From: Desulfobacterales bacterium
GTDB lineage: Bacteria; Desulfobacterota; Desulfobacteria; Desulfobacterales; C00003060
Direction: 5' to 3'
DNA: 27,782 nucleotides
NCBI GenBank assembly: GCA_020347085.1
Contig: CP070769.1
Location: 2,290,595 to 2,318,376, forward strand
This document shows positions 1,731 through 24,287 of this stretch, piece after piece. Each line of letters opens with the position of its first letter. The first letter of the stretch is position 1. The notes beneath the pieces are model-generated. The model was not told the DNA's origin. It made no database searches and saw only the letters and a list, made by a program, of their open reading frames with translations. The position numbers and the translations under genes were made by a program.

Positions 1731-1791
1731 TTGAATCTCCCGGCAGTCCCGATAAATCGGGACAGGGAATGCGCTCGCTGTTGCAGTTCAA
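1731..1791 (+). repeat. 61-nt hairpin element, copy A
   Basis: TTGAATCTCCCGGCA-GTCCCGAT-AA-ATCGGGAC-AGGGAATGCGCTCGCTGTTGCAGTTCAA; 51/61 identical to 17169-17229. Confidence 0.85.
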
Positions 1792-1891
1792 TCGGCCTTA
1801 CTTTCTGGCCATGCGGGTATTCCTACCTACGAAATACATTGCTTTTTGTCGCAAAATACGGTGTTGACCCCACTTTCCTGAACAAAAAATG

Positions 1892-2031
1892 TGCTTAGTT
1901 TGACATACAGGATGGGCCGTTGGTCAGTTTGGCCCTCAGTCACAATCCTACCTTCCAACCCCCTGGGAACTGCGACCTGGCCAGAAAGGTTCAACCCCCT
2001 TCCTGCCGCTATATCCTCCAGTTCCCAGGGA
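1892..2031 (+). promoter_or_regulatory. Conserved upstream region with long inverted repeat, copy 1
   Basis: Aligns with 18190-18330. GCTATATCCTCCAGTTCCCAGGGA (2008-2031) is identical at 18307-18330. Stem CCCTGGGAACTG (1961-1972) / CAGTTCCCAGGG (2019-2030). Confidence 0.7.
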
Positions 2032-2092
2032 TGCTATTTCGGCGGCTTCAAAGAATTTTGCCGCAGCCAAATATTTGCAAAGGGGGCATGAG

Positions 2093-2335
2093 ATGGAACA
2101 AGCATATAATGGGGGCAAGAAAAAAATCACAGACGGACTGATATTGCCCAAAGACTGCAAATGCTACGAGCCGGGATTCGGGGTTACTTGCAAAGCACAA
2201 GATATTGGACTCCAGTCATATGTTAAGTGTCTGGAGAAAGATCCATACAGTTGCTCGTTCTCTGTGTCTTTTGGTTATTCCCATTACTGTAAATGTCCTG
2301 TTCGTGTCCATATCGCTAAGAAATTCAAGAAGTGA
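2093..2335 (+). CDS. Cys-rich microprotein, paralog 1 (80 aa, C-x12-C-x7-C-x11-C-x-C)
   Basis: ATG at 2093 after AAAGGGGG fits better than the track start at 2075. Clear homology to 2955-3197 and 18392-18629. Confidence 0.85.
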   Translation: MEQAYNGGKKKITDGLILPKDCKCYEPGFGVTCKAQDIGLQSYVKCLEKDPYSCSFSVSFGYSHYCKCPVRVHIAKKFKK

Positions 2336-2411
2336 CCAACGGGATGACCTGTCCTAACAAATGGTTCAGGCGGGTTGTATCCCAATAGGGAAGTCTCGGG
2401 TCGGCGGCGAC

Positions 2412-2515
2412 AAATTTTCTCTCTGCACACAAAAGAAAAAGCCTGAGAAGAGAAAAATGACCCCGATCTGGGATTTTCCTTAGCCCACATCAGGCCACGG
2501 GGTGTACCCTTTCCC
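2412..2515. repeat. Non-coding block homologous to 3440-3540
   Basis: AAATTTTCTCTCTGCACA is identical at 2412-2429 and 3440-3457, followed by CCTGAGA and GGATTT-CC-TAGC-CA-AT-AGGCCA-GGG in both. Confidence 0.7.
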
Positions 2516-2954
2516 CTAAGTCTCGTCATGCTTAAACCGTAACCCACTGAAGCTCATCCTCTTCTTGATATCCTCCGCGCATCCTCTCTCTTTGGCGGGC
2601 CTATCGGTGACCCCTTGCTCGAATGTGATTAAGACCCTCTTTGTGTTCGGGTTTTCATTCGTATTTTTTTGGTGAAAAAACGGTATTTTACCCCTGAGAA
2701 ATTGGTATTGTCCTATATAGCATAAGGTCAAATTCCTGATTAAAATAACTGCAGACACCTTATCCGCTTATAAGGAGTTCCAGAGAAAGATGTTGAACTG
2801 GCCGAGAAATATCCTAGCCGAACCATTGAGGTCAAAAACCCGATTACGGCAATTATCCAGACCGGAAAATGGCTCAAGAATAGAAAGCGTGAAAGAGGGG
2901 GGCGCAGGTGTGAATGGTCTCGGTGCCCATTCACCGTGCCAAAGGGGATCACGG

Positions 2955-3197
2955 ACGGAAGGAGCACATTTGCAGGAAGTAGAAAAAGCCATAAACGGAC
3001 TAAGGATGCCCAAAAATTTTAAATGGTTCAAGCCGGGATTCGGGTTTACCTGTAAAGCAAAAGATATTGGACTCGGATCATTTGCCAAGTGTCTGGAAAC
3101 ACAATCGTACATGTGCCCATTCTCGGTGTCCTTTGACAATTCGTATTACTGTAAATGTTTCCCTCGTGTGTATATCGCTACGGAACTGAAGAAGTGA
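2955..3197 (+). CDS. Cys-rich microprotein, paralog 2 (80 aa), apparent ACG start or mutated start
   Basis: Homology to paralog 1 begins at ACG 2955, after SD AAAGGGGA. Length 243 nt, same as paralog 1, with all five Cys conserved. The track N-terminal extension from 2790 has no counterpart in the paralogs. Confidence 0.75.
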   Translation, partial: TEGAHLQEVEKAINGLRMPKNFKWFKPGFGFTCKAKDIGLGSFAKCLETQSYMCPFSVSFDNSYYCKCFPRVYIATELKK

Positions 3198-3245
3198 CCT
3201 GCGGAATCACCTCCATGTTTACAACTAAGAAAGGAGGTTTTGCCA

Positions 3246-3395
3246 ACGTCACTATACACAACCATCCAAAACATTATTGTGTCATTATCACCACTTGATG
3301 CCATCAATCTCTTGGTAACCGGTTTTGTGATTTTAATTCCTGTTCTTTGTCTCGCCTTTGAGTCCTCCCCCTAGTACGGGTGGTGCTGATAGCTA
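3246..3395 (+). CDS. Putative 49-aa single-TM microprotein with ACG start (not in ORF track)
   Basis: AAGGAGG (3231-3237), 8-nt spacer, ACG, then 48 sense codons to TAG: (M)SLYTTIQNIIVSLSPLDAINLLVTGFVILIPVLCLAFESSPSTGGADS, with one ~20-aa hydrophobic segment. Confidence 0.4.
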
Positions 3396-3439
3396 GGTTG
3401 TTGTTTAGTGCTGAATGCAAGCCTGGGGGCAGTGGAGAA

Positions 3440-3655
3440 AAATTTTCTCTCTGCACATAAAATCGCACCCCTGAGACCAGAATACACGCTTACCCCGGAT
3501 TTCCCATAGCTCAAATAAGGCCATGGGTTCTCCCTACCTCCGTTCCTCGGATACTTGAAAAGAGGGGTTTTGCCTTATTTACTTTGCCCTTTCTTTTTGT
3601 TCCTAATGGTCAGGGATCTCCTCCTTTCCGTCATTTGGCATTTAAGGGTTGCATT
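3440..3655. repeat. Non-coding block; 5' part matches 2412-2515, 3' part matches 1470-1615
   Basis: Same anchor sequences as listed for the partner blocks. Confidence 0.65.
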
Positions 3656-4087
3656 TTGTTTCATTTCCTATTAAACAACTACAAATTGCAAAGGAAGGAA
3701 CCGGAGCGAAAAGCACGCTTTCTTTCGGGATGCCGACACTTCACTGCCCCCACGAGGAAGCGCTTCCAGCTTCAGGCACCCACTTCCGGCCCCTTTTTTG
3801 CTCACGCTTTATTCCCCATACGCATACTTTCTCACTGAAATACCGGCTTCTGTATGGCCTGTTTTGGTTAAAACCGTTACCCGCATGGTATATAACCTCA
3901 AGAAGTACCAAAAGAAGGCTGACAAACAGCCCTTATCGGCTTCGCCAACAGCATTCTACTGAATTTTCCTCCGTATTTTATCCGGTGGCAAAATAGTATT
4001 GTTTTTGAAACAACTTGTGGTAAATAGGAGGCATTCCAGAATCACCCGCTCACCCATAGCCAAGAGGATACTATGAGCCCAATATGC

Positions 4088-4125
4088 AAACCCCATTTCT
4101 CATAGATAGGTGGGGTTTCCTGTTT
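4088..4125 (+). terminator. Possible intrinsic terminator or attenuator hairpin
   Basis: AAACCCCA (4088-4095) / TGGGGTTT (4111-4118), followed by CCTGTTT. The U-tract is imperfect. Confidence 0.35.
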
Positions 4126-4319
4126 GAAGAGACCGTATCAGAAAAATGATTGAAAAGCCCAAGAACAAAGAATGAAACGCTGTTTTCCTTGAGTAAGTAC
4201 TCCACCCACCTCAGCATGATGTGGCAGGAGAGCAATTTCGTGAAGAGATAATATCACGATGAACAGAGACTCCCCTGCGCAAATAAAAAGTTAGCTGTGA
4301 TACCAGAGCAAACGTAGCT

Positions 4320-4850
4320 ATGAAATACATTGTCGTTAACGAAAACAATTTAACTGTGGATGTCGTCGATGATTATCCTGAATCAGGATTTTTTGTCCCC
4401 ACTGAACTTAAGCCACTCCATCGAAAATTGTCTCCTCTGGAGAGGATGGTCTACTATGACTTTTTGTATCCGGCCAGATATGAAGAGGATAAAATTAAGT
4501 ACCCCGGACTGAAGCAGAAACGAATACATATAAAGTACAAACTCATCGAACCACCTCCTTGGATGATCGCCATGGCCTATATAATGTGGGAAGGCATCAT
4601 GCAAGGTCTCACCTGGGATGCTGTTAAGCCAATGGTTTGGTCAGCTATGGCTAAGCTGGCTTCGTTTGGAGTGGCTCCCGGAAGAGAGAAAGCCGAGGTG
4701 AAGACCCATGTCAGCTTCCCCTGGGCGAGATACGGCACTGACGAAAAGAAACAACGTGACATGTTCATAGGGCTTAAGAGAATCTATATGAAAATGTCAG
4801 AGCATCGGCGACGAGGTGTTGCTAACTCTGTCATTGCGGAGAATTCGTGA
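4320..4850 (+). CDS. Hypothetical protein (176 aa), no recognised family
   Basis: Longest ORF of the region, protein-like composition, one amphipathic/hydrophobic helix (WMIAMAYIMWEGIMQGLTWDAVK). No clear SD, so the start is uncertain. Confidence 0.65.
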   Translation: MKYIVVNENNLTVDVVDDYPESGFFVPTELKPLHRKLSPLERMVYYDFLYPARYEEDKIKYPGLKQKRIHIKYKLIEPPPWMIAMAYIMWEGIMQGLTWDAVKPMVWSAMAKLASFGVAPGREKAEVKTHVSFPWARYGTDEKKQRDMFIGLKRIYMKMSEHRRRGVANSVIAENS

Positions 4851-4853
4851 TTA

Positions 4854-5099
4854 GAGCTGGTTTCAAAACCCTTTAACGAGTCCATTTTGACCATTTTGGC
4901 TAAAAGTCCTTAGCGAGGCGAAGCGCAAAAATTGGAACTGTTTGAGGGCGTTAGCCGAGTTTAGCGCAGAGTTGCACCTGACGGCTTGACACAAAGTGAA
5001 GCTTCCGCCAAAAGAGGCACTTTGTGCCCAATTTTAGCAGAGTGAGTTTAGGACTCTCCAAAATGGTCAAACAAGCGAGAAAACGGGTTTTGAAACCAC
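4854..5099. mobile_element. MITE-like element 2 (~245 bp)
   Basis: Perfect 14-bp IR TGGTTTCAAAACCC (4858-4871) / GGGTTTTGAAACCA (5085-5098), plus subterminal 14-bp IR TTTGACCATTTTGG (4886-4899) / CCAAAATGGTCAAA (5058-5071). Possible TTA duplication (4851-4853 / 5100-5102). Exact ends uncertain. Confidence 0.75.
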
Positions 5100-5163
5100 T
5101 TATAAAAAATGAAGGGAGTATGTTCGTAACTCCCGTTCCTGAGACACAGAAGAAAAAATAGAG

Positions 5164-5655
5164 ATGGGCAAACGACCATTTGTTGTTCTCATGGCCGAGG
5201 ACAATGAGCACGACATTATAGCTACCAAACGGGCGTGGAAGAAGCATCGCATCGCCAACCCGCTCTACGTTGTCAATGACGGTGAAGAGTGCTTAGACTT
5301 CCTCCACGGGCAAGGAAAGTATAGCGATCTTGAGGCCGCCCCGTGGCCTGGCATTCTTCTACTAGATATCAATATGCCTAAGATGGATGGCTTGAAAGTT
5401 CTGAAGCATATCAGAGAGCAAACTGAGGATAAGGATTTGCGCCGCTTGCCTGTCATCATCCTCACCATATCAAGAGCTGAAGAGGATCGATTCAAAAGCT
5501 ACGATATCGGGGCCAACGCCTTCATCGTGAAACCAGTTGGCTTCGAGAACTTCTGTGAAGCAGTGAGGACCATCAATGCTTTCTGGCAATTGGTGGAACT
5601 TCCCAGATCGGGTGATGGTTTCATCCATACTGTAATACATGCTCCATCGAAGTAA
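5164..5655 (+). CDS. Single-domain response regulator (CheY-like, Rcp1-type)
   Basis: AEDN acidic pocket, ILLDINMPKMDG phospho-Asp motif, conserved Thr (ILTIS) and KP. Confidence 0.92.
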   Translation: MGKRPFVVLMAEDNEHDIIATKRAWKKHRIANPLYVVNDGEECLDFLHGQGKYSDLEAAPWPGILLLDINMPKMDGLKVLKHIREQTEDKDLRRLPVIILTISRAEEDRFKSYDIGANAFIVKPVGFENFCEAVRTINAFWQLVELPRSGDGFIHTVIHAPSK

Positions 5656-5810
5656 TCCCTGATATTTGCTTGATCATAGCTTGAATGGACAGGGCTAACG
5701 GACAAACTTGGTTTGGTCATTTAGATCTCAATTCCGACCGAGGCTACAACCGCCGCTCATGATTCAGGGTGACATAGCGTAGAGGACGCCCGACAACCCT
5801 TGCTTCCCAA

Positions 5811-7250
5811 TTATGTGATTTCAATAACCCGCAACAAGTTCGTGCCTCCAGGGACACCCACTGGAACACCTGCTGTAACGATCAAATAATCTCCTGGCTT
5901 AGCAAGGCCTTGACCCACAGCCCATGACGCAGCCAAGGCAAACATCTCTTCCGTGTTGGAAAAGGATGCTACCGAGGCCGGGATTACCCCCCAAGACAGG
6001 GTCAGCTGGCGTTCCGTTTCCAGATTCGGCGTCAACCCAACGATAGGACATGACGGCCTGAATCTAGCAACCAAACGAGCCGTACTCCCAGACGTTGTGC
6101 CCGCCATAATCGCAGCTGCCCGAAGATCTTCGGCCATTTGGCAGGCAGCCCGACTGATCGACGATTCCGTCATAGGCAACAGATTGGAGAGGGGTTCGCT
6201 AATGTACAAACGTCGATCCAGATGGGCTTCGGTTGCTTTGGCGATCCTATCCAATATGCGCACGGCTTCAACGGGATAGTTCCCCATGGCTGTTTCCTCG
6301 GACAGCATGAGGCCGTCCGTGCCGTCCAAGATCGCATTTGCCACATCAGTGGCTTCCGCGCGGGTTGGACGTGGACTGCTGACCATTGACCGAAGCATCT
6401 GCGTTGCTGTGATTACGGGTTTACCGGATTGGCGAGCAATTTGAATAATCTTCTTCTGAATTATGGGCACCTCTTCCAGTGGCGTTTCAACACCTAGATC
6501 GCCCCGGGCAACCATAAGACCATCCACTTGTGCCAGAATGGCCTCCAATCTGCTGATCGCCTGGGCTTTTTCTATCTTAGCAATCAACAAAGGAGGACAG
6601 GCAGCCTCACTCAAAACGTTTTGAACAGGGTCTATATCCCCCTCATGGCGAACAAAGGAAAGGGCCACAAAATCGACCTTTTCTTCCAGTCCAACCGCCA
6701 GGTCGCCTCGATCCTTCTCTGTAAAGGCAGGTACGCTCAAGCTGCTGGATGGCAAGTTAATTCCCTTGTACGATTGAACCGTGCCACCGACCAACACCCG
6801 GCAAACCACCTTGTCCACTGCTTTCTCTTCCACTTCGAGTTCCACCAGCCCGTCTGCCAGCAGAATGCGTTCACCGGTATTCACATCGTCAACAATATAC
6901 GGGTAATTGACAGGAAGCGCTGATGGGTCAGACTCATCGTTGGGGCTGAGGACAATCCTTTCACCTGCCTCCAGCCTCTTTTCTTCAACCGCGAGTTTAT
7001 CCAGGCGAATCTTTGGGCCTCCAAGATCCTGAAGTATTCCCACCTGTTTGCCCAGTTCCTGGGATATTCGCCTGATGGTCCGGATGGTCTCTCGGTGACT
7101 GTCGCGGTCTCCATGGGAGAAATTGAGTCGAGCCACATCCATTCCCCCAAGAGCGAGTCTTCTGATTTGCGCTTCTGAGGAAGTAGCCGGTCCAATGGTG
7201 CACACGATCTTCGTTCTTCGAAGTCCAGCGCGTCGCTTTAAGTCTACCAT
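5811..7250 (-). CDS. pyk: Pyruvate kinase
   Basis: RRTKIVCTIGPA, ARLNFSHG, DLGGPKIR, IAKIE, MVARGDLGVE, ATQML, RAEATDVANA, GTDGLMLSEETA. Confidence 0.97.
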   Translation of the reverse strand: MVDLKRRAGLRRTKIVCTIGPATSSEAQIRRLALGGMDVARLNFSHGDRDSHRETIRTIRRISQELGKQVGILQDLGGPKIRLDKLAVEEKRLEAGERIVLSPNDESDPSALPVNYPYIVDDVNTGERILLADGLVELEVEEKAVDKVVCRVLVGGTVQSYKGINLPSSSLSVPAFTEKDRGDLAVGLEEKVDFVALSFVRHEGDIDPVQNVLSEAACPPLLIAKIEKAQAISRLEAILAQVDGLMVARGDLGVETPLEEVPIIQKKIIQIARQSGKPVITATQMLRSMVSSPRPTRAEATDVANAILDGTDGLMLSEETAMGNYPVEAVRILDRIAKATEAHLDRRLYISEPLSNLLPMTESSISRAACQMAEDLRAAAIMAGTTSGSTARLVARFRPSCPIVGLTPNLETERQLTLSWGVIPASVASFSNTEEMFALAASWAVGQGLAKPGDYLIVTAGVPVGVPGGTNLLRVIEIT

Positions 7251-7337
7251 GCCTTCCTCCTGAATTCTTCAGAGAAGATATTCTCTTGCCTGCACGCTAC
7301 CACCGAGGACCTATATCTATTCTTGTAGACTTTTCTG

Positions 7338-8687
7338 TTACTTCCGGTCCACTAGAAAAATGCGCACGTCCATCACATTAGTCCTGGTAGGTCCTGTCAT
7401 CAGCAGGTCCTTCAACGCTTCGAAGAAGGGATACGCATCGTTTCGGCGCAAGTAATCATACGGATCAAGGCCCTTTCCACGGGCGCGCTCCACGGTGTGA
7501 CCATCAGCAATTGCACCAGCTGCATCCGTCGGCCCATCGGTTCCATCTGTCCCCCCACTCAGAACAATCACATCTCTTTCTCCAGCCAGAGCAATGGCTG
7601 AAGCCAGCGCGAATTCTTGGTTTCGACCTCCTCGACCTTGTCCTTGCAGGGTAACCGTCGTCTCCCCACCGGACAAGATGCAGGCAGGGAGTGGTATAGG
7701 ATTTTCCGAATCACGTATCTCTTTGGCAATAGCTGCATGGACTTTGGCGACCTCCCGCGTTTCCCCCTCGATCCTTGCAGACAAGATCAACGCCCTGTAA
7801 CCTAAAAGTTGTGCCTCCTTGCTGGCAGCTATGAGTGCCTGAAGATTAGTTCCTACAAGTTGCCAGGACGAATGTTCGAAAGCAGGATCTTTGGGCTTAG
7901 GAGTTTCTGCTATTTCTCCCCTCTCCCCCTTGTCTACCCGGTCACGAACAGATGGAGGGACACGATCCCATATCTTGTAACGCTTCAGTACTTCTACAAC
8001 ATCTTTAAACGTACTGGAATCGGGAACCGTAGGTCCGGAAGCGATCACATCCAGATCATCGCCCACAACGTCTGAGAGCACAAGGCTGACTACAGTGGCC
8101 GGATAGGCCAAACGCGCCAACCCACCCCCCTTAACCCTGGAAAGGTGCTTACGCACAGTGTTGATCTCGTGAATGGTCGCCCCACAGGCCAGAAGAAGCT
8201 GTGTGACCTTCTGTTTGTCCTCCAGGGTTATCCCTTCAGCGGGGGCCACGAGAAGGGCGGATCCGCCTCCCGACATCACGCATATGATCAGATCAGCCCG
8301 CCCTGCATGTTCTACGAGAGAAAGGAGCTCCTCGGTCCCCTGAACGCCTCGTGCATTAGGAACCGGATGGCTGGCTTCCCTTACCTGGACCTTTCGGAGA
8401 GAAAGTCCATGTCCTTCTTTGACTACAATGACCCCGTCTTCAATTCTGTCTCTGAGAAGGCTCTCGAGGGCCTTTGCCATGGGGGCGTCTGCCTTGCCAG
8501 CACCGACCACGAAGACTCTGTCATAGTCCGTGAGCTTGAATTGTCGCTCACCAATCGACAGGGTGTCATCCTGAAACTTGACGTGCCGAAGGATCGCTTC
8601 CTCTGGATCGACTGCCCGAAGGGCAGCCTGAAAAATGTCATGGGCCTCACGACGCATTCTGTCCAAGGTTGACTCACTCTTCGCCAT
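7338..8687 (-). CDS. Glycerate kinase class II (TtuD/GckA/MOFRL family, glycerate 2-kinase-like)
   Basis: VVGAGKA, ASHPVP, SGGGSAL, NTVRKHLSRVKGG, SDVVGDDLDVIASGPT, GGETTV, GGRNQE, GTDGTDGPT, TGPTRTNVMD. Confidence 0.92.
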   Translation of the reverse strand: MAKSESTLDRMRREAHDIFQAALRAVDPEEAILRHVKFQDDTLSIGERQFKLTDYDRVFVVGAGKADAPMAKALESLLRDRIEDGVIVVKEGHGLSLRKVQVREASHPVPNARGVQGTEELLSLVEHAGRADLIICVMSGGGSALLVAPAEGITLEDKQKVTQLLLACGATIHEINTVRKHLSRVKGGGLARLAYPATVVSLVLSDVVGDDLDVIASGPTVPDSSTFKDVVEVLKRYKIWDRVPPSVRDRVDKGERGEIAETPKPKDPAFEHSSWQLVGTNLQALIAASKEAQLLGYRALILSARIEGETREVAKVHAAIAKEIRDSENPIPLPACILSGGETTVTLQGQGRGGRNQEFALASAIALAGERDVIVLSGGTDGTDGPTDAAGAIADGHTVERARGKGLDPYDYLRRNDAYPFFEALKDLLMTGPTRTNVMDVRIFLVDRK

Positions 8688-8730
8688 GGCACCGCTCCTT
8701 TCAGCTATCTATCATGACTAGACGTTTTGT

Positions 8731-10656
8731 CTAGAGATCTTCACACTTGAGGAAGACGACTCCGAGGGGAGGTAACGTTACTGTTAGGGTGTGGGGACGG
8801 CCGTGATGTGAGACAGGAGTTGCCTCAATTCGTCCAAGATTACCGATGCCACTCCCTCCATAATCTTCGGCATCGCTGTTTAGTATCTCCTGCCAAAAGC
8901 CCTCCCTGGGCGCACCGACTCGATAATCGAAGCGGGGCACAGGTGTGAAATTGCACACAATGATTATCACATCGTCACTCCCGTGTCCCTTGCGCATCAG
9001 GCTAAGCGTGCTCTGCATTGCGTCGTTGCAATCGATCCACTCAAAGCCGCCGCCGTCAAAATCAAGTTGATGCAGGGCCGGTTCGTTTTGATAGGCGCGA
9101 TTCAGATCACCAACCCAACGCTGGAGACCTGCATGAAGAGGATAATCGAGGAGGTGCCAGTCCAAACCAGTCTCGTGATACCACTCACTCCACTGGCCGA
9201 ACTCCCCGCCCATAAAAAGAAGCTTTTTGCCCGGCTGCGCATACATGTAGCCAAACAGAAGCCGCAGATTGGCAAACTTCTGCCAGTCATCTCCCGGCAT
9301 CTTTGCCAGAAGGGAGCCCTTTCCGTGAACCACCTCATCGTGAGAAAGCGGAAGAATGAAATTTTCATGAAACGCATAGAGCATGCGAAATGTCAGCTTG
9401 TTGTGATGGTATGTTCTATGAACAGGGTCATTTGACATGTACTCCAGTGTGTCGTGCATCCAACCCATGTCCCACTTCATGCCAAAGCCAAGACCGCCCA
9501 CGTACGTGGGACGTGACACCATGGGCCACGCTGTGGACTCCTCCGCCACAGTCTGCACCTGCGGATAGCCTTTGTATACCTCCTGGTTGAAGCGCCGAAG
9601 AAAGTCAATGGCTTCAATATTCTCCTTTCCACCATATTTATTTGGAATCCACTCGTCTTCATTCCGACCGTAGTCCAAGTAAAGCATGGAGGCGACAGCA
9701 TCTACCCGGAAGCCGTCCACGTGATACTTATCAAGCCAAAACAGGGCACTGCTGATCAGAAAGCTTCGTATCTCATTGCGACCGTAGTTGAAGATAAGGC
9801 TGTCCCAATCCGGATGGATGCGCTGATTAGGGTCCGAGTGCTCAAAGAGGTGGGTACCATCGAAGAAGCCAAGGCCGTACTCATCACTTGGAAAGTGCGA
9901 TGGGACCCAATCCAGGATGACTCCAATGCCCCTTTGGTGCAGACACTCGATCAGGTACATAAAATCCTGTGGCTGCCCATATCTGCTCGTGGGAGCAAAG
10001 TACCCTACGCACTGATAGCCCCAAGAGCCGTAGAAGGGGTGCTCCATCACCGGAAGGAACTGAACATGTGTAAAGCCCATATTACCCGCATATTCAGCCA
10101 GCTTTGGAGCCAGTTCCCGATAAGAAAGTGAGCGATTTCCCTCCTCTGCAACCCGCATCCAAGAACCAAGATGCACCTCGTAGATAGCCATGGGCGCTTC
10201 GGCGCGGTTTTGGTCACCTCTGTTGTTCATCCAATCCTGGTCATGCCAGTCGTAACTCAGATCCCAAACAACGGAAGCTGTCTTGGGAGGCACCTCACTA
10301 AAAAAAGCAAAGGGGTCAGCCTTCTCCACCCGGTAGCCGGCGTAGCGGGATTGAATATGATACTTGTATGCTGCGCTAGCGCCGAGATTGGGAATGAAGC
10401 CTTGCCAAATTCCTGACTGTCCCTTGGGGCGCAGTTGGTGGCTGTCCTTGTTCCAGTCATTGAAATCTCCCATAACGCATAGCCTCTCAGCATCTGGCGC
10501 CCATACAGCAAAGTAAATTCCCTCGATGCCATCGTGCGATGCCAGGTGAGCACCCATTTTCTCATAAAGATGAAAATGGCTCCCTTCGTTAAAAAGGTAG
10601 AGGTCGTCATTGGATAGGAGGCTAAAATCGTAAAATACCGTGTGTTGAGAAGTCAT
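8731..10656 (-). CDS. glgB: 1,4-alpha-glucan branching enzyme (GH13)
   Basis: FAVWAP, IYEVHLGSW, SWGYQ, DWVPSHFP, DGFRVDAVASMLY, AEESTAWP, KWDMGWMHD, LSHDEVVHGKGSL. Confidence 0.97.
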   Translation of the reverse strand: MTSQHTVFYDFSLLSNDDLYLFNEGSHFHLYEKMGAHLASHDGIEGIYFAVWAPDAERLCVMGDFNDWNKDSHQLRPKGQSGIWQGFIPNLGASAAYKYHIQSRYAGYRVEKADPFAFFSEVPPKTASVVWDLSYDWHDQDWMNNRGDQNRAEAPMAIYEVHLGSWMRVAEEGNRSLSYRELAPKLAEYAGNMGFTHVQFLPVMEHPFYGSWGYQCVGYFAPTSRYGQPQDFMYLIECLHQRGIGVILDWVPSHFPSDEYGLGFFDGTHLFEHSDPNQRIHPDWDSLIFNYGRNEIRSFLISSALFWLDKYHVDGFRVDAVASMLYLDYGRNEDEWIPNKYGGKENIEAIDFLRRFNQEVYKGYPQVQTVAEESTAWPMVSRPTYVGGLGFGMKWDMGWMHDTLEYMSNDPVHRTYHHNKLTFRMLYAFHENFILPLSHDEVVHGKGSLLAKMPGDDWQKFANLRLLFGYMYAQPGKKLLFMGGEFGQWSEWYHETGLDWHLLDYPLHAGLQRWVGDLNRAYQNEPALHQLDFDGGGFEWIDCNDAMQSTLSLMRKGHGSDDVIIIVCNFTPVPRFDYRVGAPREGFWQEILNSDAEDYGGSGIGNLGRIEATPVSHHGRPHTLTVTLPPLGVVFLKCEDL

Positions 10657-14910: not shown

Positions 14911-15308
14911 CTTAGGGACCATCCGTGAATCAGGCGGTTTTCTTTACACGGTTGGAAAGATGGTTTGTCATATTACCGAATCTCAAACGTATTTCAAGAG
15001 TAATAGAGCCCGTCGTAGCCGATTTTGAATTTCTTTTTTGGCCATCCAGCATTGCTGATAAGGTGGTCACTGAGTCTGGATGCTCCGAATTTCCGGGACA
15101 TGAACCTCGGTAGGCCACGACTGGCATCTGTCAGACTTGCGGGTTTGTTATCCTGGTGGACGTAGATGCATTCTTTAGCAAGCCCTGTCAACGCTCAGTC
15201 ACGGGTCCTCCCTTGACGCCTAAGCTGTTTGGCTCTATATTGACACAATGACGTCAGCGGACCCCATTGGTTCCGATGGATAATCTTCATAAACTTTTAA
15301 AAAGCTAC

Positions 15309-15344
15309 TGAAGCTCCCTACAGTCCCGATATATCGGGACTGTA
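15309..15344 (+). repeat. Hairpin element, partial copy D
   Basis: TGAAGCTCCC followed by a perfect 26-bp palindrome TACAGTCCCGATATATCGGGACTGTA (15319-15344). Lacks the 3' tail. Confidence 0.75.
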
Positions 15345-15483
15345 AGAAAGTTTACCATTTTTGGATTGTTTCCATCCCCTTGCTCAGCAAGGGCATACAA
15401 ACTTAAACCATAGCACTTCATGCTTCTTTGTTTTGTGGCTTGCAGCCTCTCAACAAAGCCACCTGACACATGTGGTTATTTAG

Positions 15484-15547
15484 GCGCTCGCTACCCCTGC
15501 AGTCCTGATGAATCGGGACAGGGAATGTGCTCGCTGTTCCAGTTCAA
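15484..15547 (+). repeat. Hairpin element, copy B (subtype with 5' GCGCTCGC)
   Basis: GCGCTCGCTACCCCTGCA-GTCCTGAT-GA-ATCGGGAC-AGGGAATGTGCTCGCTGTTCCAGTTCAA; ends 23 nt before the mscS ATG. Confidence 0.85.
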
Positions 15548-17168: not shown

Positions 17169-17229
17169 TTGAAGCTCCCTGCAGTCTTGACAAGTCAGGA
17201 CGGAGAATGCGCTCGCTGTTGCAGTTCAT
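17169..17229 (+). repeat. 61-nt hairpin element, copy C
   Basis: TTGAAGCTCCCTGCA-GTCTTGAC-AA-GTCAGGAC-GGAGAATGCGCTCGCTGTTGCAGTTCAT; the stem has compensatory changes relative to copy A. Confidence 0.85.
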
Positions 17230-17234
17230 TCACG

Positions 17235-17250
17235 TGGCATGACTTTTGCT
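17235..17250 (+). promoter_or_regulatory. sigma54 (-24/-12) promoter for the second PilZ gene
   Basis: TGGCATGACTTTTGCT: GG-N10-GC with TGGCA and TTGC consensus, 56 nt before the ATG. Confidence 0.7.
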
Positions 17251-17306
17251 TGCCATAACAGACATTTCTGCCCTCTCGATAATAAATATAGTGAAGAGGT
17301 TGCCAC

Positions 17307-17684
17307 ATGACGAATACAAAAGAGCGCGTCGAGCGACGCAAACACAGGCGCTTCCTGGTCCAGGAGGGTGCTTATGTCATACTCAGCCCTTCTGATACCG
17401 GAGCGGGTCGACTAAAAAATATTAGCATGGGTGGACTTATGTTTGAGTATGTGAGTCTGAAAGCGCCATCAATCAACGCAACCGAGCTGGAGATATTTGT
17501 CACCGACAGTCTTTTTCGTTTGCATCAAATACCATGTCAAAGCGTTTGGGATTTGCCAATCTACAAAAGTCCCACATTTTCCTTACAGAAGAGGCGATGT
17601 GGCGTGCAATTTGGGGACCTGTCGCCTCACCAGTTATCTCGGTTGGAATATTTTATCCAGAACCACACGACAGGCGAGGCGTGA
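17307..17684 (+). CDS. Standalone PilZ-domain protein, paralog 2 (125 aa)
   Basis: RKHRR (RxxxR), NISMGG, RRCGVQFG, SD GAGG. Colinear with 504-878. Confidence 0.9.
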   Translation: MTNTKERVERRKHRRFLVQEGAYVILSPSDTGAGRLKNISMGGLMFEYVSLKAPSINATELEIFVTDSLFRLHQIPCQSVWDLPIYKSPTFSLQKRRCGVQFGDLSPHQLSRLEYFIQNHTTGEA

Positions 17685-18189
17685 GGTCACGAGCCAGTTC
17701 AACGGTGAAGCCTCCCAGCCCTGAATGACAGGGGTTCTAACTAAAGGCAGCGCGTCGATGCTGATGACTCTGTGTATCTTGGTGCTGTTTCTAGGATTAT
17801 AGCTCCAAGCTCTTGAAATGACAAAGAATATCGGTTTACTCCTGAAGCGGAAAGCCTTGACGTTAATGTGCGCCTTCGACCAAATTGCCACATTCTAATG
17901 TCAAAGAACTGACGCAAAGCCAGTAATGGTTGTCCTTGAGCTTACCAGCTCTGAACTCCAAGCACCCCTACTACCCATAGACTACCGGAGCCCCCTCAGC
18001 AGTACTGGGTTTACTTGGATCTTCTATGTCAGCATCCTGACGTTCCCCTGGTTTTTAAAACACGGACACCTATGAAGCCTGACGTTTTTCTCTTTTCGCC
18101 ATGGCCTCCTTTCCTGATGCCCTTCGTGACTGTCTACCCATCCTTGAGGCTTTTTTGCGCCCTCTGCTTCCTTGACTTTTTTTGCATTA

Positions 18190-18330
18190 TGCTTACTTTG
18201 ACATAGAAGATCGGCTGTTGGCCAACGTGGCCCTCTGCCGTTTTCCTTTTTCCTCTCTTATCCCTGGGGGCTGCGATATAGTCTGAAAGGCTTCCCCCCT
18301 TCCCCTGCTATATCCTCCAGTTCCCAGGGA
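18190..18330 (+). promoter_or_regulatory. Conserved upstream region with long inverted repeat, copy 2
   Basis: Aligns with 1892-2031. TCCCTGGGGGCTG-C-GATATAG pairs with CTATATC-CTC-CAGTTCCCAGGGA (two G-U pairs). Confidence 0.7.
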
Positions 18331-18391
18331 CCATTTTTTCGTGATGGCCAACCGTCTCACCGCACCTGAAACATGTCCAAGGTGGCTGGGG

Positions 18392-18629
18392 ATGGATCAA
18401 GAACATAGGCTGGAAATAGAGGAGATCATAGATAGCTTGGAATGCCCCTACGATTTCAAATGGTACAAACAGGAAAGCGAGAATCTCTGCAAGGCACGAG
18501 ATGTTGGACTGGAAACATTCGTGGAGTGCCTCGAAGAACATCCCCATGAGTGCCCATTTTCAATGTATCTTGCTGGTATCCATTATTGCAAATGGCCCTG
18601 TCTACATCGTTAAGAAACTGAAAAGGTAA
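18392..18629 (+). pseudogene. Cys-rich microprotein, paralog 3, frameshifted near the C-terminus
   Basis: MDQEHRLEIEEII...CKARDVGLETFVECLEEHPHECPFS...HYCKWP stops at 18613. The family tail VYIVKKLKR-stop continues in another frame to 18629. 238 nt versus 243 nt implies a 5-nt deletion. Confidence 0.75.
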
Positions 18630-18783
18630 CATGTAGTTTTTCTTCACTCAACGGCTTGTCTATACTTGTTACTAAAAACTTCCATGCCTTTCCTTTCTGT
18701 CACCCTCGCCTGAATGTTCTAGAATCATGCTCTTTCTGTTCGTTGTTTTAAGGCTTTCGCAAATATGTCGGATAAGGACAACT

Positions 18784-18799
18784 TGGCATGAATTATGCA
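18784..18799 (+). promoter_or_regulatory. sigma54 (-24/-12) promoter
   Basis: TGGCATGAATTATGCA: GG (18785-86)-N10-GC (18797-98), 29 nt before ATG 18829. Confidence 0.65.
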
Positions 18800-18828
18800 T
18801 ATTCCAGGCAAACATAAAGGAGCCTATC

Positions 18829-19155
18829 ATGTGGTCAGACCTCTTCTTGGCACTGAAAGCCATGGATTTCGAACAGGCCAATAAGATCCTCTCCGGTATG
18901 GATGCCCTGGCGACTTTGATGAATCCATGGGTAATTGCTGTCATAGTCATTATCTCTATTGTCCTGTTAATGCGCTACGGAGACCGGGCGGTGATAACTT
19001 TTTTGTCATTTCCTGCGTTTATGGTCCTGTTTCAGAAGACAGTTCAAGGCATGGATGTCATGCAACTGGAACACAGTAGCCAAAATTTGCTGATTTTCAT
19101 TGGTGGATTTCTGGTCATTGCAGGAGTAAATGTTTACTTCCACTTTGTTCGTTGA
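18829..19155 (+). CDS. Small integral membrane protein (108 aa, ~3 TM segments), unknown function
   Basis: SD AAAGGAG before ATG 18829 (track start at 18727 overlaps the promoter). Three hydrophobic stretches. Confidence 0.8.
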   Translation: MWSDLFLALKAMDFEQANKILSGMDALATLMNPWVIAVIVIISIVLLMRYGDRAVITFLSFPAFMVLFQKTVQGMDVMQLEHSSQNLLIFIGGFLVIAGVNVYFHFVR

Positions 19156-19230
19156 TTGCCCACTGTGTTGCCTACCTCCATATTCAGCCTTCTGTGCGAA
19201 ATAACGGCCTCTGCGGGTCCTGTTTTCGGC

Positions 19231-19243
19231 TTGAAGCTCCCTG
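19231..19243 (+). repeat. Hairpin element, 5' fragment E
   Basis: TTGAAGCTCCCTG is identical to the first 13 nt of copy C, then diverges. Confidence 0.45.
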
Positions 19244-19395
19244 TATTATAAACGTTAACCCCGGCTGAGTTTAGAGATCGTCCAGTGGTTTTAGAGCGTC
19301 AAGACGTCATCTTTCGATGGGTTTCCTGGATTAGCAAGGAAAGGTGTGGAATGAATATGCAGTGGATGGGGTCCTTCTTGTCCTACGACCCGTGT

Positions 19396-21147
19396 CTACT
19401 TTTGCTTTTGCTCTTTCTTCTCAATCTTGGCCCATGAATCGCGCAACGTAACAGTCCGATTAAACATAAGGGTTTTGTCGGACGAATCAACGGAATCGAC
19501 ACAGAAATAGCCAAGTCTTTCAAACTGGTAGACGCTTCCTGGTTCTGCATGTGATAGACTAGGTTCAATGGCGCATGACGTCACCACCTGCAAGGAGTTC
19601 GGATTCAAATAAGTCTTGAAATCGGCACCATCCTTTTCTCCGTCTGGATTCGCTATTTCAAAGAGACGATCGTACAGGCGCACTTCAGCCTCGAGCGAAT
19701 GAGCAGCCGAAACCCAGTGAAGTGTTCCTCTCACCTTCCGTCCGTCTTTTGACCAGCCACCTCGCGTCTCGGGATCATAGGTGCAGTGCAGCTCAGCGAC
19801 TTCGCCGGTCTGCTCATCCTTAACCACTCCCACACATGTGATATAATACGCGTATCTTAGCCGCACCTCACGACCCGGGGCCAAACGGAAGAACTTTTTC
19901 GGTGGATCCTCACGAAAATCCTCTCGTTCGATGTACAGCACTTGGGAGAAAGGAACCTTACGTGTACCCATACTGGGATCCTCCGGGTTGTTTATGGCGT
20001 CCAACTCCTCCACCTGGTCTTCTGGATAATTGTCAATGACTACACGAAGTGGGCGCAACACGCCCATGACACGTGGCGCTCGCTTGTTTAAATCTTCGCG
20101 GACACAATACTCGAGTAAAGCCATGTCGACGATACTATCCCTCTTGGCTACTCCGATGCGCTCACAAAAGTTTCGAATCGACTCTGGTGTGTAGCCCCGC
20201 CTCCGCATACCCGATATAGTAGGCATCCGCGGATCATCCCACCCGGAGACATCCCCCTGCTCTACCAATTGAACGAGCTTTCTCTTACTCAAAACGGTGT
20301 AGCTGAGATTGAGACGAGCAAATTCAATCTGCTGTGGATGACAATCCACGTTCAATTGGTCAAGGATCCAGTCGTACAAAGGGCGATTATCTTCGAATTC
20401 TAGGGTGCAAATAGAATGCGTGATCCCTTCAATGGAATCCGAAAGGCAATGACTAAAGTCGTACATCGGATAAATGCACCATTTACTGCCCGTCCGATGA
20501 TGATCGACCTTTCGGATGCGGTAGATAGTTGGATCTCGCATGTTCAAATTTGGAGATGTCATATCAATCTTTGCTCGAAGCACGTGAGCGCCGTCCTCGA
20601 ATTCTCCTGCCCGCATGCGCTCGAACAAGTCCAAGTTCTCTTCGACCGAACGTGGACGATACGGACTGTCCTTGCCCGGCTTAGTCAAGGTACCTCGATA
20701 CTCTCTGATTTGATCTGCGCTCAAACTGCAAACATACGCCTTGCCATCCTTGATCAGCTGCACGGCATATTCATAAAGTTGATCAAAGTAGTCAGACGTG
20801 TAGAACAGCCGATCACCCCAATCGAATCCAATCCACCGAACGTCTGACTTGATTGATTCTACATATTCAACGTCCTCTTTGGTAGGATTGGTATCATCGA
20901 ATCGTACATTGCAAAGGCCGCCGAATTCAGCTGCCAGGCTGAAATTGAGGCAGATTGATTTGGCGTGTCCAATGTGCAAATACCCATTAGGCTCCGGTGG
21001 GAACCGCGTATGAACTCGGCCATTGTTCTTTTTTGCCTCAACGTCTTCAGCAATGATATTGCGGATGAAATTGGGCGGAGGGGTAAACTTGGTTGCAGTC
21101 ACATTCACAGCATTTTTCTCACTTGGCCTCTTGAGAAACCCTGTCAT
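19396..21147 (-). CDS. glnS: Glutaminyl-tRNA synthetase
   Basis: [74 protein letters not shown]. No C-terminal YqeY domain. The start could be a later GTG. Confidence 0.97.
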
Positions 21148-21186
21148 CCGGCTACGCCTGTTACCAAGATATCTAGCGGTGCCTTA

Positions 21187-22662
21187 CTAAAAGAATGTTA
21201 CAGCCTTCCGCAAGCGCTCTACCACACGACGCTGTCCCACGGCTATGAGCACATCAAACAACCCTGGACCTTTTGCCAGGCCCGTGACCGCCGCGCGAAT
21301 GCCATTAATCAATATCCCCGCTTTGATTTCAAACTCTTCAGCCATCTCACGGATCACATGTTCAGCCTCTTCGGCCGTGAACGTTTTCAAGGCTTCCAAG
21401 CGATCCGCCAGGATAGGAAACCACGCTTTCAGTCCTTCGTGCTTCAGGATATTCTTCTCCAGGGCCTTCGGCTCGACAGGGTAGTCTTCTGAAAAATAAG
21501 GGCGACCCAGGGTCACAAAATCGGTGGTCACATGATATCTGCTTCGAATCACGTCGACTGTATGAAGAAACCAATCGCGCTTCATCCCCTCAAAATCCGG
21601 ATCCCACATCCCCGCCTTTTCCAACTCTGCCCTGACGTAAGGCTCAATCTCTTCAACCGGAAGATTTCTCAGGTAATGTGTATTGATACTAATCGCCTTT
21701 GGGTCGGTAAAGAATTTTGGATCGTCCTTCCTCACATCAAAGATGGCATTAGCGCGACTTATGCCTTCGAGAGAAAATGCCTCGATCAGATCTTCCTTAG
21801 AAAAGATCTCTCTTGAATCAGAGGTGGACCATCCCAGAAGGGCCAGATAGTTTACAAATGCCCAGGGCAGGAAACCGTGTTCCTTGTAGAAGTGGACGGC
21901 AACCAATTCGCCGTGCGTCCTTTTTGAGATCTTTGCCTTTTTGGGATCCAAAGTGAGGGACATATGGGCAAATCTTGGAATGGGTGCACCAAGAGCCCTG
22001 TATATCAAGATTTGCTTGGGCGTATTTGCAAGCCCATCCTGTCCGCGAATGACATGGGTGATTCGGTCTCGGATGTCATCCACAGCATTCGAAAGGACAT
22101 ACAGAGGCCGACCATTGGAACGGACGATGACAAAATCTTCTATGTCTTCATACTTTTTCTCAATAAAGCCATAGACCATGTCTTCGAAAAGGACCGAGCC
22201 TTTCCCACGGGGCACCTTCAAACGAACGGTGTACGGCATCCCGGCGGCTTCCTTTTTGCTAATCTCCTCAGATGTTAACCTGCGACAAGTGCCATCGTAC
22301 TGTAACGCAGACTTTTTCTTGCGCGCCTCTTCGCGCTTTTTATCAAGCTCCTCTTTTGTACAAAAACACTTGTATGCATGCCCCAACTGGATGAGTTTCT
22401 GCGCAGCTGCCACATGCTCATTGATGAACTGAGACTGAAAATAAGGGCCTTCATCCCAGGTAATGCTCAACCATTTGAGGCTTTCAATGATCCCACGGAT
22501 CGACTCTTCAGAAGACCTTTCCGCGTCGGTATCCTCGATCCTCAAGATCAACTTGCCACCCGTCTTTTGGGCAAAGAGCCAGTTGAATATGGCTGTTCGG
22601 GCACCCCCGATATGAAGGTATCCACTGGGGCTCGGGGGAAACCGGGTTCGAACCTCTTCCAT
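21187..22662 (-). CDS. gltX: Glutamyl-tRNA synthetase
   Basis: RTRFPPSPSGYLHIGGART, LRIEDTD, WDEGPYFQS, THVIRGQD, KISKR (KMSKS-like). Confidence 0.96.
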   Translation of the reverse strand: MEEVRTRFPPSPSGYLHIGGARTAIFNWLFAQKTGGKLILRIEDTDAERSSEESIRGIIESLKWLSITWDEGPYFQSQFINEHVAAAQKLIQLGHAYKCFCTKEELDKKREEARKKKSALQYDGTCRRLTSEEISKKEAAGMPYTVRLKVPRGKGSVLFEDMVYGFIEKKYEDIEDFVIVRSNGRPLYVLSNAVDDIRDRITHVIRGQDGLANTPKQILIYRALGAPIPRFAHMSLTLDPKKAKISKRTHGELVAVHFYKEHGFLPWAFVNYLALLGWSTSDSREIFSKEDLIEAFSLEGISRANAIFDVRKDDPKFFTDPKAISINTHYLRNLPVEEIEPYVRAELEKAGMWDPDFEGMKRDWFLHTVDVIRSRYHVTTDFVTLGRPYFSEDYPVEPKALEKNILKHEGLKAWFPILADRLEALKTFTAEEAEHVIREMAEEFEIKAGILINGIRAAVTGLAKGPGLFDVLIAVGQRRVVERLRKAVTFF

Positions 22663-22738
22663 GATATGGAGTCCTTTAGTTGTAAAATCCGTGCCTTTGC
22701 TTGTCTCTCACAGAGCCCACAGAGCCTCAGAGCTTGTC

Positions 22739-22769
22739 AAGCTGAATTGCTGAGAGGGCAATTCAGCCT
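22739..22769 (-). terminator. Hairpin, probably the original amrB terminator
   Basis: GCTGAATTGC (22741-22750) / GCAATTCAGC (22758-22767), a perfect 10-bp stem. It would lie ~10 nt after the amrB stop if the MITE is removed. Short U-tract. Confidence 0.5.
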
Positions 22770-22781
22770 AAATCCCGCCTA

Positions 22782-22971
22782 GCGAGACTGACGCAGGAGT
22801 TTTTGTCTGGGTATAAATGCGCCGGCAGGAGCCGAGCATTTGGTCTGACTTTTCCCTCTCAAAAAATCAGACCCAAGATTATCTCGGTGATGTCTGTGGA
22901 CTCGCGTGACCCCGATCGATCGGGAGAGCGGGCGAGAGAGCCCTCTTTGCTGCCGAGTCATACTGTCTCGC
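22782..22971. mobile_element. MITE-like element 3 (190 bp) with TA target duplication
   Basis: TA-GCGAGAC...GTCTCGC-TA; pairing extends with bulges (TGAC/GTCA, GCAG/CTGC). Internal stems GGTCTGA/TCAGACC and palindrome CCCGATCGATCGGG (22911-22924). Confidence 0.65.
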
Positions 22972-23783
22972 TAATAGACAATGAAGCCTGCATATCCAAC
23001 AACCTGGGCATAATCGCCGGTCACATCTCCTGATGTAGCATACTGAACCAGCTCGGCCCTGTCTGCACCCAAGAACTTGCATGCCTCAAGCACGATCGTC
23101 GTGGGAATGACCCCACACATAGATATCCCATGCTTGGATACAGTTTCATAAAGCCCCTGGGGGTCCAAATCAAGGATACGGTCGATAGCCAACTTATCTT
23201 TGGCCTTTGCTGTCTCCTGAGACTCGTAATGGGTCATATCCGTGCTGGCCACCAGAAGAACTTCTTTGCCATAATCCTGAATACCTTGTACCAAGGCCTG
23301 ACCAATCTCTTGACATGCATCGTAAGTTAAGTGGGACAGCCCGATCGGTACAATGCTTACTTCAGGCCGTAAAAATTGAAGAAATGGAACCTGAACTTCG
23401 ATGGAATGCTCCATGGTGTGCGCCCCGGGATCGTCTTCTATCCTGACAACAGAGGTCGAGACTTGCAGAATTGATTTCGCCAGTACTTCGTTGATTGGAA
23501 CAGACCCCAACGGCATGTCCCATATCCCGGAGGCAGTCAGAGCAACCCTTGCCCCTATGCCCCTATGGTTGGGCCCCAGGATCACCACCGCGTCCGGAAT
23601 GCTGATTTGAGAAAAAACGGCACCTGCCACGCCACCGGAGTACATATAACCTGCATGTGGCGAAATGGCAGCCATCACCTTTTTTGGCTCTGGTGCCGGT
23701 CGGACAAATGAGTCCAGCTGCTCCTTCAGCCGCTCCTTTTCACCAGGATAGAACATGTTGGCCACAGCGGGTATGCGAGACAT
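22971..23783 (-). CDS. amrB: MEMO1-family protein (AmmeMemoRadiSam system protein B)
   Basis: R-PAVA-MFYP, SPHAGYMYSG, LGPNH, EHSIEVQVPFLQ, ASTDMTHYE, SMCG, YATSGDVTGD--QVVGYA. Confidence 0.92.
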   Translation of the reverse strand: MSRIPAVANMFYPGEKERLKEQLDSFVRPAPEPKKVMAAISPHAGYMYSGGVAGAVFSQISIPDAVVILGPNHRGIGARVALTASGIWDMPLGSVPINEVLAKSILQVSTSVVRIEDDPGAHTMEHSIEVQVPFLQFLRPEVSIVPIGLSHLTYDACQEIGQALVQGIQDYGKEVLLVASTDMTHYESQETAKAKDKLAIDRILDLDPQGLYETVSKHGISMCGVIPTTIVLEACKFLGADRAELVQYATSGDVTGDYAQVVGYAGFIVY

Positions 23784-24016
23784 GTCACACCTCCATTGCT
23801 CGTGATTCCAGATTCATTATACGATTTTTGATCTGCGACTTATCCGGTTTCCCCAGCATATTTTACGTTGTAGCCTGAGTTAACTTATAAACATAACACA
23901 AACGGATCATTCGGACAAGCCGTGTACCTGCCCATGCACAGGGCGTCGGCTAACGGTCTGCAGGCCAGAATTGGCCTCAGTATGGGCAATACGCAAAAAG
24001 GGGAGGCCTAAAGGGC

Positions 24017-24044
24017 TTGACAAAACGGTTTTTTTGTCTATAGT
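24017..24044 (+). promoter_or_regulatory. sigma70-type promoter upstream of rpmF
   Basis: TTGACA (24017-24022), 16-nt spacer, TATAGT (24039-24044). Confidence 0.6.
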
Positions 24045-24222
24045 AGGTACCTCATTTTTTATTTTTTTGAAGTAACGTGACAAAAAAACTTGAAATACTA
24101 ATAGGTTAGCAACGACTTTTTGCTCCATATGATTGATTTTTCATGACAATTTGTAGTCAATTGAGATTCTCTGCAGCTCGCTGTGGAGAATCTCCAATTC
24201 CAAGGAACTTGATCATTTTTTG

Positions 24223-24287
24223 ATGCGCTCGCCAACCCCGCAACCCCGATAAAAGGGGATCGGGAATGCGCTCGCCTGTGCAGTTCA
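24223..24287 (+). repeat. Hairpin element, copy F (diverged, subtype of copy B)
   Basis: ATGCGCTCGCCAACCCCGCAACCCCGATAAAAGGGGATCGGGAATGCGCTCGCCTGTGCAGTTCA; ends 37 nt before the rpmF ATG. Confidence 0.75.

Follow-up and report, generated by a model that had tools for sequence, protein, structure and literature searches.

PATE-like repeats of Desulfobacterales genomes, most probably a family of non-autonomous IS200/IS605 elements

A 27,782-nucleotide (nt) stretch of the genome of a Desulfobacterales bacterium (GCA_020347085.1, contig CP070769.1), referred to here as the window, carries several copies of a short, hairpin-bearing repeat, three of them just upstream of genes. Their neighbours are, as a first-pass annotation of the window had stated, genes for MscS-like, PilZ and L32 proteins. 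The same annotation had taken the repeats either for solo right ends of IS200/IS605-type transposons, spread by a trans-acting HUH transposase, or for a leader or guide-RNA scaffold. In the following, we describe the repeats and their relatives, which most probably form a family of non-autonomous, PATE-like elements of the IS200/IS605 family, related to a subgroup of IS200. The family is new as such; it does not reveal a new mechanism.

The four window copies annotated as full, here A, B, C and F, are present at the positions given for them and belong to one direct-repeat family (D2), with nhmmer E-values of 1e-16 to 1e-20, but the extent of some had to be redrawn (Table 1). A partial copy at 15309-15344 is real; rather than being separate units, however, it and copy B are the ends of a single 235-nt long form, and copy F, placed at 24223-24287, covers only the tail side of a 123-nt long form that has degenerated. 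Likewise, the 'second subtype' that B and F seemed to constitute, with a duplicated GCGCTCGC, reflects the inner part of such long forms. The alignment of A and C reads as described, with two compensatory pair swaps, one G-T wobble and an identical 24-nt tail; the motif 'GAAT-hairpin...TCAA' singled out in copy A, by contrast, is a private variant of the consensus TTGAAGCT and no guide. The orthologue of copy C in the relative G005 has a 4-nt deletion in its tail. The 13-nt partial at 19231 is common to G005, yet too short to call, and may be an old element stub or a chance match. Folded as single-stranded DNA and compared with shuffled sequences, copy A reaches a z-score of -2.7 and long form B one of -5.6, while copy C folds no better than its shuffles.

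Table 1. Element copies and retained targets in the window, and Y1 transposase-like genes elsewhere in the same genome (positions refer to the window unless a locus is named)
Feature	Position	Strand	Basis
Copy A, short one-hairpin form, 56 nt without target; read on the - strand: CTGCAACAGCGAGCGCATT, hairpin CCCT/GTCCCGAT..ATCGGGAC/..GGG, then AGATTCAA	1731..1786	-	nhmmer, alignment, repeat family D2
Retained target of copy A, TTGAA on - / TTCAA on +	1787..1791	-	analogy with other empty sites
Long form combining the 15309 partial with copy B; two hairpins, plus internal hairpin modules	15308..15542	-	
Retained target TTCAA beside copy B	15543..15547	-	empty-site model
Copy C, short form, degenerate hairpin GTCTTGAC..GTCAGGAC	17169..17224	-	
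Retained target TTCA beside copy C	17225..17228	-	
13-nt match TTGAAGCTCCCTG	19231..19243	+	diverged version in G005
Copy F, complete but degenerate two-hairpin long form	24161..24283	-	end-to-end alignment with canonical 120-nt form
Retained target TTCA beside copy F	24284..24287	-	empty site in G004
TIRYT-type gene, 336 amino acids	L001, G000:C1:621946-623057		
TIRYT-type gene, 324 amino acids	L002 889-1863		

The source genome, denoted G000, is a 2.38-Mb metagenome-assembled genome (MAG), 76% complete, whose ~480 contigs are joined by 100-N spacers. With a profile built from the window copies, nhmmer (one iteration, E<1e-3) recovers 188 copies from it, 105 on the + and 83 on the - strand, so that the uniform + orientation reported for the window is confined to this contig and a matter of local chance. 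According to a crude gene call based on open reading frames, 167 copies (89%) are intergenic, while only ~20% of the genome is non-coding. When 79 full-length copies are aligned, the flanks are random on both sides and the edges sharp, with GTTCA(A) at the 3' and (A)TTGAAG at the 5' side. The abrupt end of conservation at GTTCA(A), first seen in the window, is therefore true of the whole genome, and TTCA follows 118 of 136 tails. Two other readings of the tail were discarded on inspection of the consensus, namely as a sigma-54 promoter (the -24 GG is absent at the right spacing) and as an integron attC site (GTTCAA misfits GTTRRRY), as was the idea that the TGA of the target serves as the stop codon of the neighbouring gene, which is true for only 5 of 136 tails.

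Orthologous sites that are filled in one genome and empty in another reveal how the element inserts. We recovered four such pairs: L038 and L043, site F, and the G000 copy at 2181499. At L038 and L043, on contigs of a relative, the filled sites read ..ATTGAAKC...GCAG-TTCAA.., and the empty counterparts in G000 read ..GTGTA-ATTCAA-GGTCC.. and ..CCACC-ATTCAA-AATGG.., respectively. Site F is empty in G004 (..GTAGTCAA-TTCA-GCAGG..), and the copy at 2181499 is absent from G005, where the empty site is one base off the prediction. For copy A itself, no empty site was found. In all four pairs, the TTCA(A) beside the tail persists without the element, and nothing is duplicated. Since the target of IS200/IS605 elements lies 5' of their left end, this retained TTCA(A) implies that the top strand of the element is the complement of the strand read in the first-pass annotation. 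The assignment to the IS200/IS605 kind thus holds, but with the opposite polarity: the conserved 'tail' corresponds to the left end, read on the complementary strand, the TTCA(A) is a retained target and not a right-end cleavage site, and the copies are not solo right ends but complete miniature elements with both cleavage sites. With these corrections to polarity and completeness, the proposal that IS200/IS605-type ends were spread by a trans-acting HUH transposase is supported.

On its top strand, the element reads (T)TGAA-CTGCAACAGCGAGCGCATT-hairpin...hairpin-AGCTTCAA-T, where the cuts fall directly before CTGCAACAGCGAGCGCATT and directly after AGCTTCAA. In full, long elements comprise (T)TGAA, the left cut, CTGCAACAGCGAGCGCATT, the hairpin CCCYGYAG-CTTG-CTRCRGGG, TTAGCGAGCGAATC, internal hairpin modules, GAAGATT, the same hairpin again and AGCTTCAA, which ends at the right cut. 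Insertion takes place directly 3' of (T)TGAA, and this motif remains in the flank without a target duplication. In IS608, the left cut falls 3' of TTAC, outside the element and 19 nt 5' of the hairpin foot, and the element itself includes the right site TCAA, 10 nt 3' of the foot; the tetranucleotide 5' of each foot directs cleavage through base pairing (PMC3201880), with pairs such as T-4:A+17 and T-3:A+16 (PMC5934647). In our element, the corresponding distances from the hairpin foot are 19 nt (5', left cleavage site) and 8 nt (3', right site TCAA). Written by position in cleavage site (C) and guide (G), the pairing rule is C1-G2, C2-G1 and C4-G4; all three pairs are Watson-Crick both at the left end (TGAA/CATT) and at the right end of the 120-nt class (TCAA/GATT), and the one position at which the two cleavage sites differ (G/C) is matched by a compensatory difference between the guides. 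The third pair, C-1:G+19 in IS608, is said to go back to earlier structural work by Barabas and colleagues from 2008. All three are consistent with IS608's own right end (TCAA/GAAT) and with the tnpA-bearing relatives described below.

The element hence shares with IS608 the subterminal imperfect hairpins at both ends, a left cleavage site that is also the target and lies outside the element at the same distance from the hairpin, a right site TCAA inside the element a few nt 3' of the hairpin, a 4-nt guide 5' of each foot that follows the identical pairing rule, a C as the first base past the left cut, and the lack of a target duplication. It differs in that it contains neither tnpA nor tnpB, in its target (TGAA instead of TTAC) and its right spacing (8 instead of 10 nt), in its unrelated hairpin sequences, and in that its commonest form has a single hairpin.

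The same hairpin also accompanies genuine transposase genes. G095 (L143/L187; G095:C164) encodes an IS200-type TnpA of 147 amino acids, with a 72% identical homologue in G140 (G140:C107), and the flanks of both genes, read on the tnpA strand, contain CCCCGCAGCTTGCTGCGGGG and CCCTGCAGCTTGCTGCAGGG, that is, the element hairpin in the very orientation that the empty sites had led us to predict. With five such TnpAs aligned as the query, a scan of metagenomes yielded 80 loci (same-hairpin loci L239-L318), and in 30 metagenome loci the same hairpin is found on the tnpA strand. Many tnpA loci end in GATA-hairpin-AGCTTCAT, where the element has GATT-hairpin-AGCTTCAA, which constitutes a compensated change at C4-G4, and the 8-nt spacing at the right end is identical. 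In these relatives, the left end obeys the pairing rule in 26 of 26 cases at C1-G2, 21 of 26 at C2-G1 and 25 of 26 at C4-G4, and the right end in 27, 28 and 28 of 30 cases, respectively; the left-end total was not matched in any of 2000 shuffles of the guides. Sites and guides covary, occurring in the combinations TTAA/AATT, TCAA/GATT, CTAA/AGTT and TAAA/TATT.

The element belongs with this same-hairpin IS200 subgroup: the hairpin CCCYGYAG-CTTG-CTRCRGGG and the pairing rule are identical, and the left end starts with CT in both. Unlike the element, however, the members of the subgroup encode a TnpA of 147-150 amino acids, their left linker measures 9-10 nt instead of 19, and their guides and targets (TTAA/AATT, TCAA/GATT, CTAA/AGTT) differ from those of the element. 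Its GCGAGCGC linker occurs in none of the tnpA-bearing loci, and the direct parent was not found; likewise, a scan of ~45 Y1 loci from five genomes rich in the element, of 30 loci within the order and of the 80 metagenome loci revealed no autonomous copy, with a gene between two ends, that has the 19-nt left linker. One locus of G047 (L147; G047:C99) harbors a perfectly symmetrical mini-structure, TTGAAGAA-CCCTGTCG-CAAG-CTACAGGG-TTCTTCAA, downstream of an IS200 tnpA pseudogene with two stop codons.

Element copies come in long and short forms. Close pairs of copies on the same strand represent the two ends of longer elements, the canonical form of which has 120 nt and reads, on the strand of the first-pass annotation, ATTGAAGCT-CCCTGCAG-CAAG-CTGCAGGG-AATCTTCGACTGTAAGGAAGGGTACCATTTTTAGATTCGCTCGCTAA-CCCTGCAG-CAAG-CTACAGGG-AATGCGCTCGCTGTTGCAG-TTCAA; longer versions contain extra hairpin modules. 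Short forms span 52-61 nt and retain one hairpin, their sub-families are distinguished by the hairpin apex, with CAAG in 12, TAAA in 7 and TGAA in 4 complete copies, and a 52-nt form with a simple hairpin is found in other genomes. In 32 copies taken from different genomes, 93% of the 8-bp stem cells are paired, and two of the pairs covary (pair 14-27: UA 16, CG 9, UG 5; pair 16-25: CG 14, UA 8) to a degree that none of 500 shuffles attained.

The two forms also meet at orthologous positions. Site B holds the 235-nt form in G000 and a one-hairpin short form in G005, the closest relative, and both have a private tail substitution in common; at site F, G005 has lost 43 nt internally between ATGCGCTCGCC direct repeats. 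Long forms collapse in place into the one-hairpin forms of 52-61 nt, via deletion between their repeated hairpin regions. Such shrinkage from two hairpins to a one-hairpin form that reaches more than 100 copies bears on the question of how REP-like repeats originate from IS200/IS605 ends. It is conceivable, if rather doubtful, that the one-hairpin form is itself mobile. If so, one subterminal hairpin, whose left cleavage site is 19 nt upstream and whose right site is 8 nt downstream, would suffice for 'peel and paste' transposition by a Y1 enzyme, and the family would stand, as a living intermediate, between REP sequences and IS200 derivatives with two ends, and would be amplifying in genomes without a findable cognate transposase gene.

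The family extends well beyond G000. Exact matches to the 26-nt tail occur in more than 81 contigs of many MAGs from the Desulfobacterales and Desulfobacteria, and if up to three mismatches are allowed, the tail is present in 31 of the 151 genomes sampled from the order, or 25 of 109 genera, at 1 to more than 100 copies per genome; a control search with the reversed pattern gave no match. G000 and G005 contain 125-137 tails per genome, and within the genus the counts range from 137 in G005 over 51 in G004, 37 in G006 and 33 in G009 to none in G007 and G019. The dominant tail variant differs between species, for example GCTTTTGCAG in G009 and GCTATTGCAG in G006. Patchy spread combined with a lineage-specific consensus is the pattern that a mobile family produces, and the elements have undergone separate amplification in each lineage.

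As non-autonomous IS200/IS605 elements, the repeats would move by single-strand 'peel and paste' transposition, carried out by a Y1 (HUH) TnpA that is supplied in trans and recognizes the hairpin, while the element's own guide bases would determine where cleavage takes place and which target is used; the gene for the transposase may lie outside what the MAGs assembled, or may have been lost recently. Several observations sit uneasily with this account. The empty site for the copy at 2181499 lacks one expected base, and a further 'empty' site, L016, has TGCAG in place of TTCAA. In many long forms the right guide is CATT and not GATT (17 versus 12 exact copies), which leaves one pair mismatched, and the one-hairpin short forms carry the CATT guide only. 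The GTCCCGAY..RTCGGGAC apex, dominant in short forms, was found beside no tnpA. IS200/IS605 insertions usually follow the direction of replication, yet copies within contigs showed no co-orientation: in G000, whose contigs are short and unordered, 9 of 20 same-contig pairs more than 2 kb apart share their orientation, and in a listing from the sampled genomes 10 pairs are in the same and 8 in opposite orientation. An analysis of replication-strand bias from genome coordinates was abandoned because the strand is arbitrary between the ~480 N-joined contigs of G000. Lastly, a canonical TnpA_IS200 was found neither in G000 nor in G005, G004, G009, G006 and G142, all of them MAGs (76-96% complete), and G009, an incomplete MAG, has 33 copies and no Y1 match at all. 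Fragmented MAGs often leave multi-copy or plasmid-borne genes unassembled or unbinned, and for this reason the absence of TnpA from the genus is not established.

The only HUH transposase genes that were found in the genus are of another kind, and it could be asked whether the copies are REP-like sequences that these genes mobilize or maintain, as RAYTs do. G000 has just two matches to PF01797, genes for proteins of 324 and 336 amino acids that combine a Y1 domain with a C-terminal, DnaA_C-like helix-turn-helix and fit subclass 2.1 of the TIRYT class (PMC6006769). A TIRYT-type gene is present in all 14 sampled genomes with at least 10 copies, and in four cases (L002, L011, L131, L148) an element lies at most 350 nt upstream of one. 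However, the orientation of these adjacent elements to the gene is inconsistent, the gene family occurs in 104 of 151 genomes of the order irrespective of the element, and the two can be dissociated in either direction, with 17 TIRYT matches and no element in G007, and 33 elements and no Y1 match in G009. Moreover, the 336-residue gene is bounded by 26-nt inverted repeats of its own, ATAGGGGGACGCCTATGATTTTATGC, which also bound its homologues in G082, occur ~4 times in G000 (with solo copies at 779251 and 2178014) and are unrelated to the element; the flanks of the 324-residue gene show only a shorter related motif, TAGGGGACG, upstream. TIRYT ends were therefore rejected as a source of the element, to which they have no similarity, and no REPs were found near the published subclass 2.1 genes (PMC6006769). 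We consider a dependence on TIRYT genes unlikely. As a separate observation, a stretch of less than 40 kb in G082, a distant member of the order, houses at least 10 TIRYT genes, all in the same orientation (G082:C1:3849487-3888517), which are ~63% identical to the one in G000.

Very unlikely, in our view, is the notion that the element is a functional RNA, be it a 5' leader, a small RNA or a guide scaffold of the TnpB/TldR type that reads into the flank. It draws on the three window copies just upstream of genes, on the ~20 of 75 copies with a downstream start codon within 50 nt and on the covarying stem, which a DNA hairpin explains equally well. Orientation relative to genes is unbiased, as the downstream gene lies on the same strand in 75 and on the opposite strand in 68 cases, and copies between co-directional genes are sense in 34 and antisense in 40. 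Searches of Rfam, with the whole window at gathering thresholds and with the long form at E-value thresholds, returned only chance hairpin matches, and no match to tnpB (PF07282) was obtained in G000, G005, G142, G009 and G095 (the last from another family, the others from one genus), iscB not having been searched for; the element-bearing G047 has one tnpB-like gene. In addition, copies are variably present at orthologous sites of close relatives, and what abuts the variable flank in the first-pass model is the left, target-side end, whereas omega RNAs terminate elsewhere. A conventional MITE (miniature inverted-repeat transposable element) of the DDE type, in which TTGAA...TTCAA would be 5-nt terminal inverted repeats accompanied by a short target duplication, seems more remote still: TTGAA and TTCAA are indeed reverse complements, and the 2-nt overlap (TT) at the junctions might pass for a duplication, but the ends are not inverted repeats past these 5 nt (GCTCCC versus CTGCAA), and empty sites always retain the TTCAA version and never an arbitrary duplicated sequence. 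A MITE would also leave unexplained the geometry, the guide pairing and the identity of the hairpin with that of tnpA(Y1) elements.

Among described repeats, the element resembles the PATEs (palindrome-associated transposable elements), which Haloquadratum and Halanaerobium carry as derivatives of IS200/IS605 elements reduced to their ends (PMC3119063, PMC7290912). Like these, the element is gene-less, keeps only the hairpin-bearing ends and is presumed to be moved in trans, but its copy number is far higher (125-137 tails per genome in G000 and G005), it shrinks to one hairpin and 52-61 nt, and its parent insertion sequence is not seen in the same genomes. With the REP/REPIN-RAYT (TnpA-REP) systems, which are thought to descend from IS200/IS605 ends, it shares the high-copy intergenic hairpins and the layout of one hairpin with cleavage motifs on either side. 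It differs from them in that it lacks a GTAG or CGTC head as well as a flanking RAYT gene, that its copies do not form inverted pairs, and that conservation reaches 19 nt and 8 nt past the hairpin, to cleavage sites of the IS608 type. We searched the literature for previous accounts of such a repeat in Desulfobacterales and found nothing specific. The family offers a clean natural test of the guide and cleavage rule of IS608 in an uncultured lineage, where the guide CATT reveals the target TGAA. It is also of practical relevance: elements break assemblies, as contigs of this MAG end inside copies, and since copies also lie within a few bases of start and stop codons, annotation or masking of the family is advisable for Desulfobacterales genomes.

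Larger differences between G000 and its relatives are likewise found next to element copies. A 4.5-kb segment with a TauE/SafE sulfite exporter and a CBS-domain protein (L171 11811-16292; G000:C1:2184910-2189391) is present in G000 and G005 only, and not in G004, G006, G007 and G009. At both of its edges, an element copy is followed by the same ATCTCCCTTSACAA, which suggests that the segment was gained or lost by recombination between element-plus-flank repeats. At a further site in G005, the junction reads ATTCAA, but G000 lacks ~810 nt beside the element (G000:C1:255593-255659 versus G005:C154:2320-3140); in G005, these encode most of a radical-SAM-like gene of 264 amino acids, which is truncated in G000. 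Two other dispersed repeat families, of ~315 nt (L174 4435-4750; G000:C1:258035-258350) and ~190 nt (L171 3037-3230), have many copies each in G000, G005 and G009.

In the window itself, copy A is embedded in a stretch (1400-3700) that holds ~3 copies, 70-78% alike, of a ~1.0-kb unit (repeat families D1, D5, D6 and D7) and has only small open reading frames without a Pfam match. The window also encodes two paralogous PilZ-domain proteins of 124 and 125 amino acids (504-878 and 17307-17684), whose genes share an 83-nt stretch that is 78% alike (repeat family D4). Finally, a sigma-54-like motif, TGGCAT-N5-TTGCT, is found directly past copy C, at ~17234-17249.

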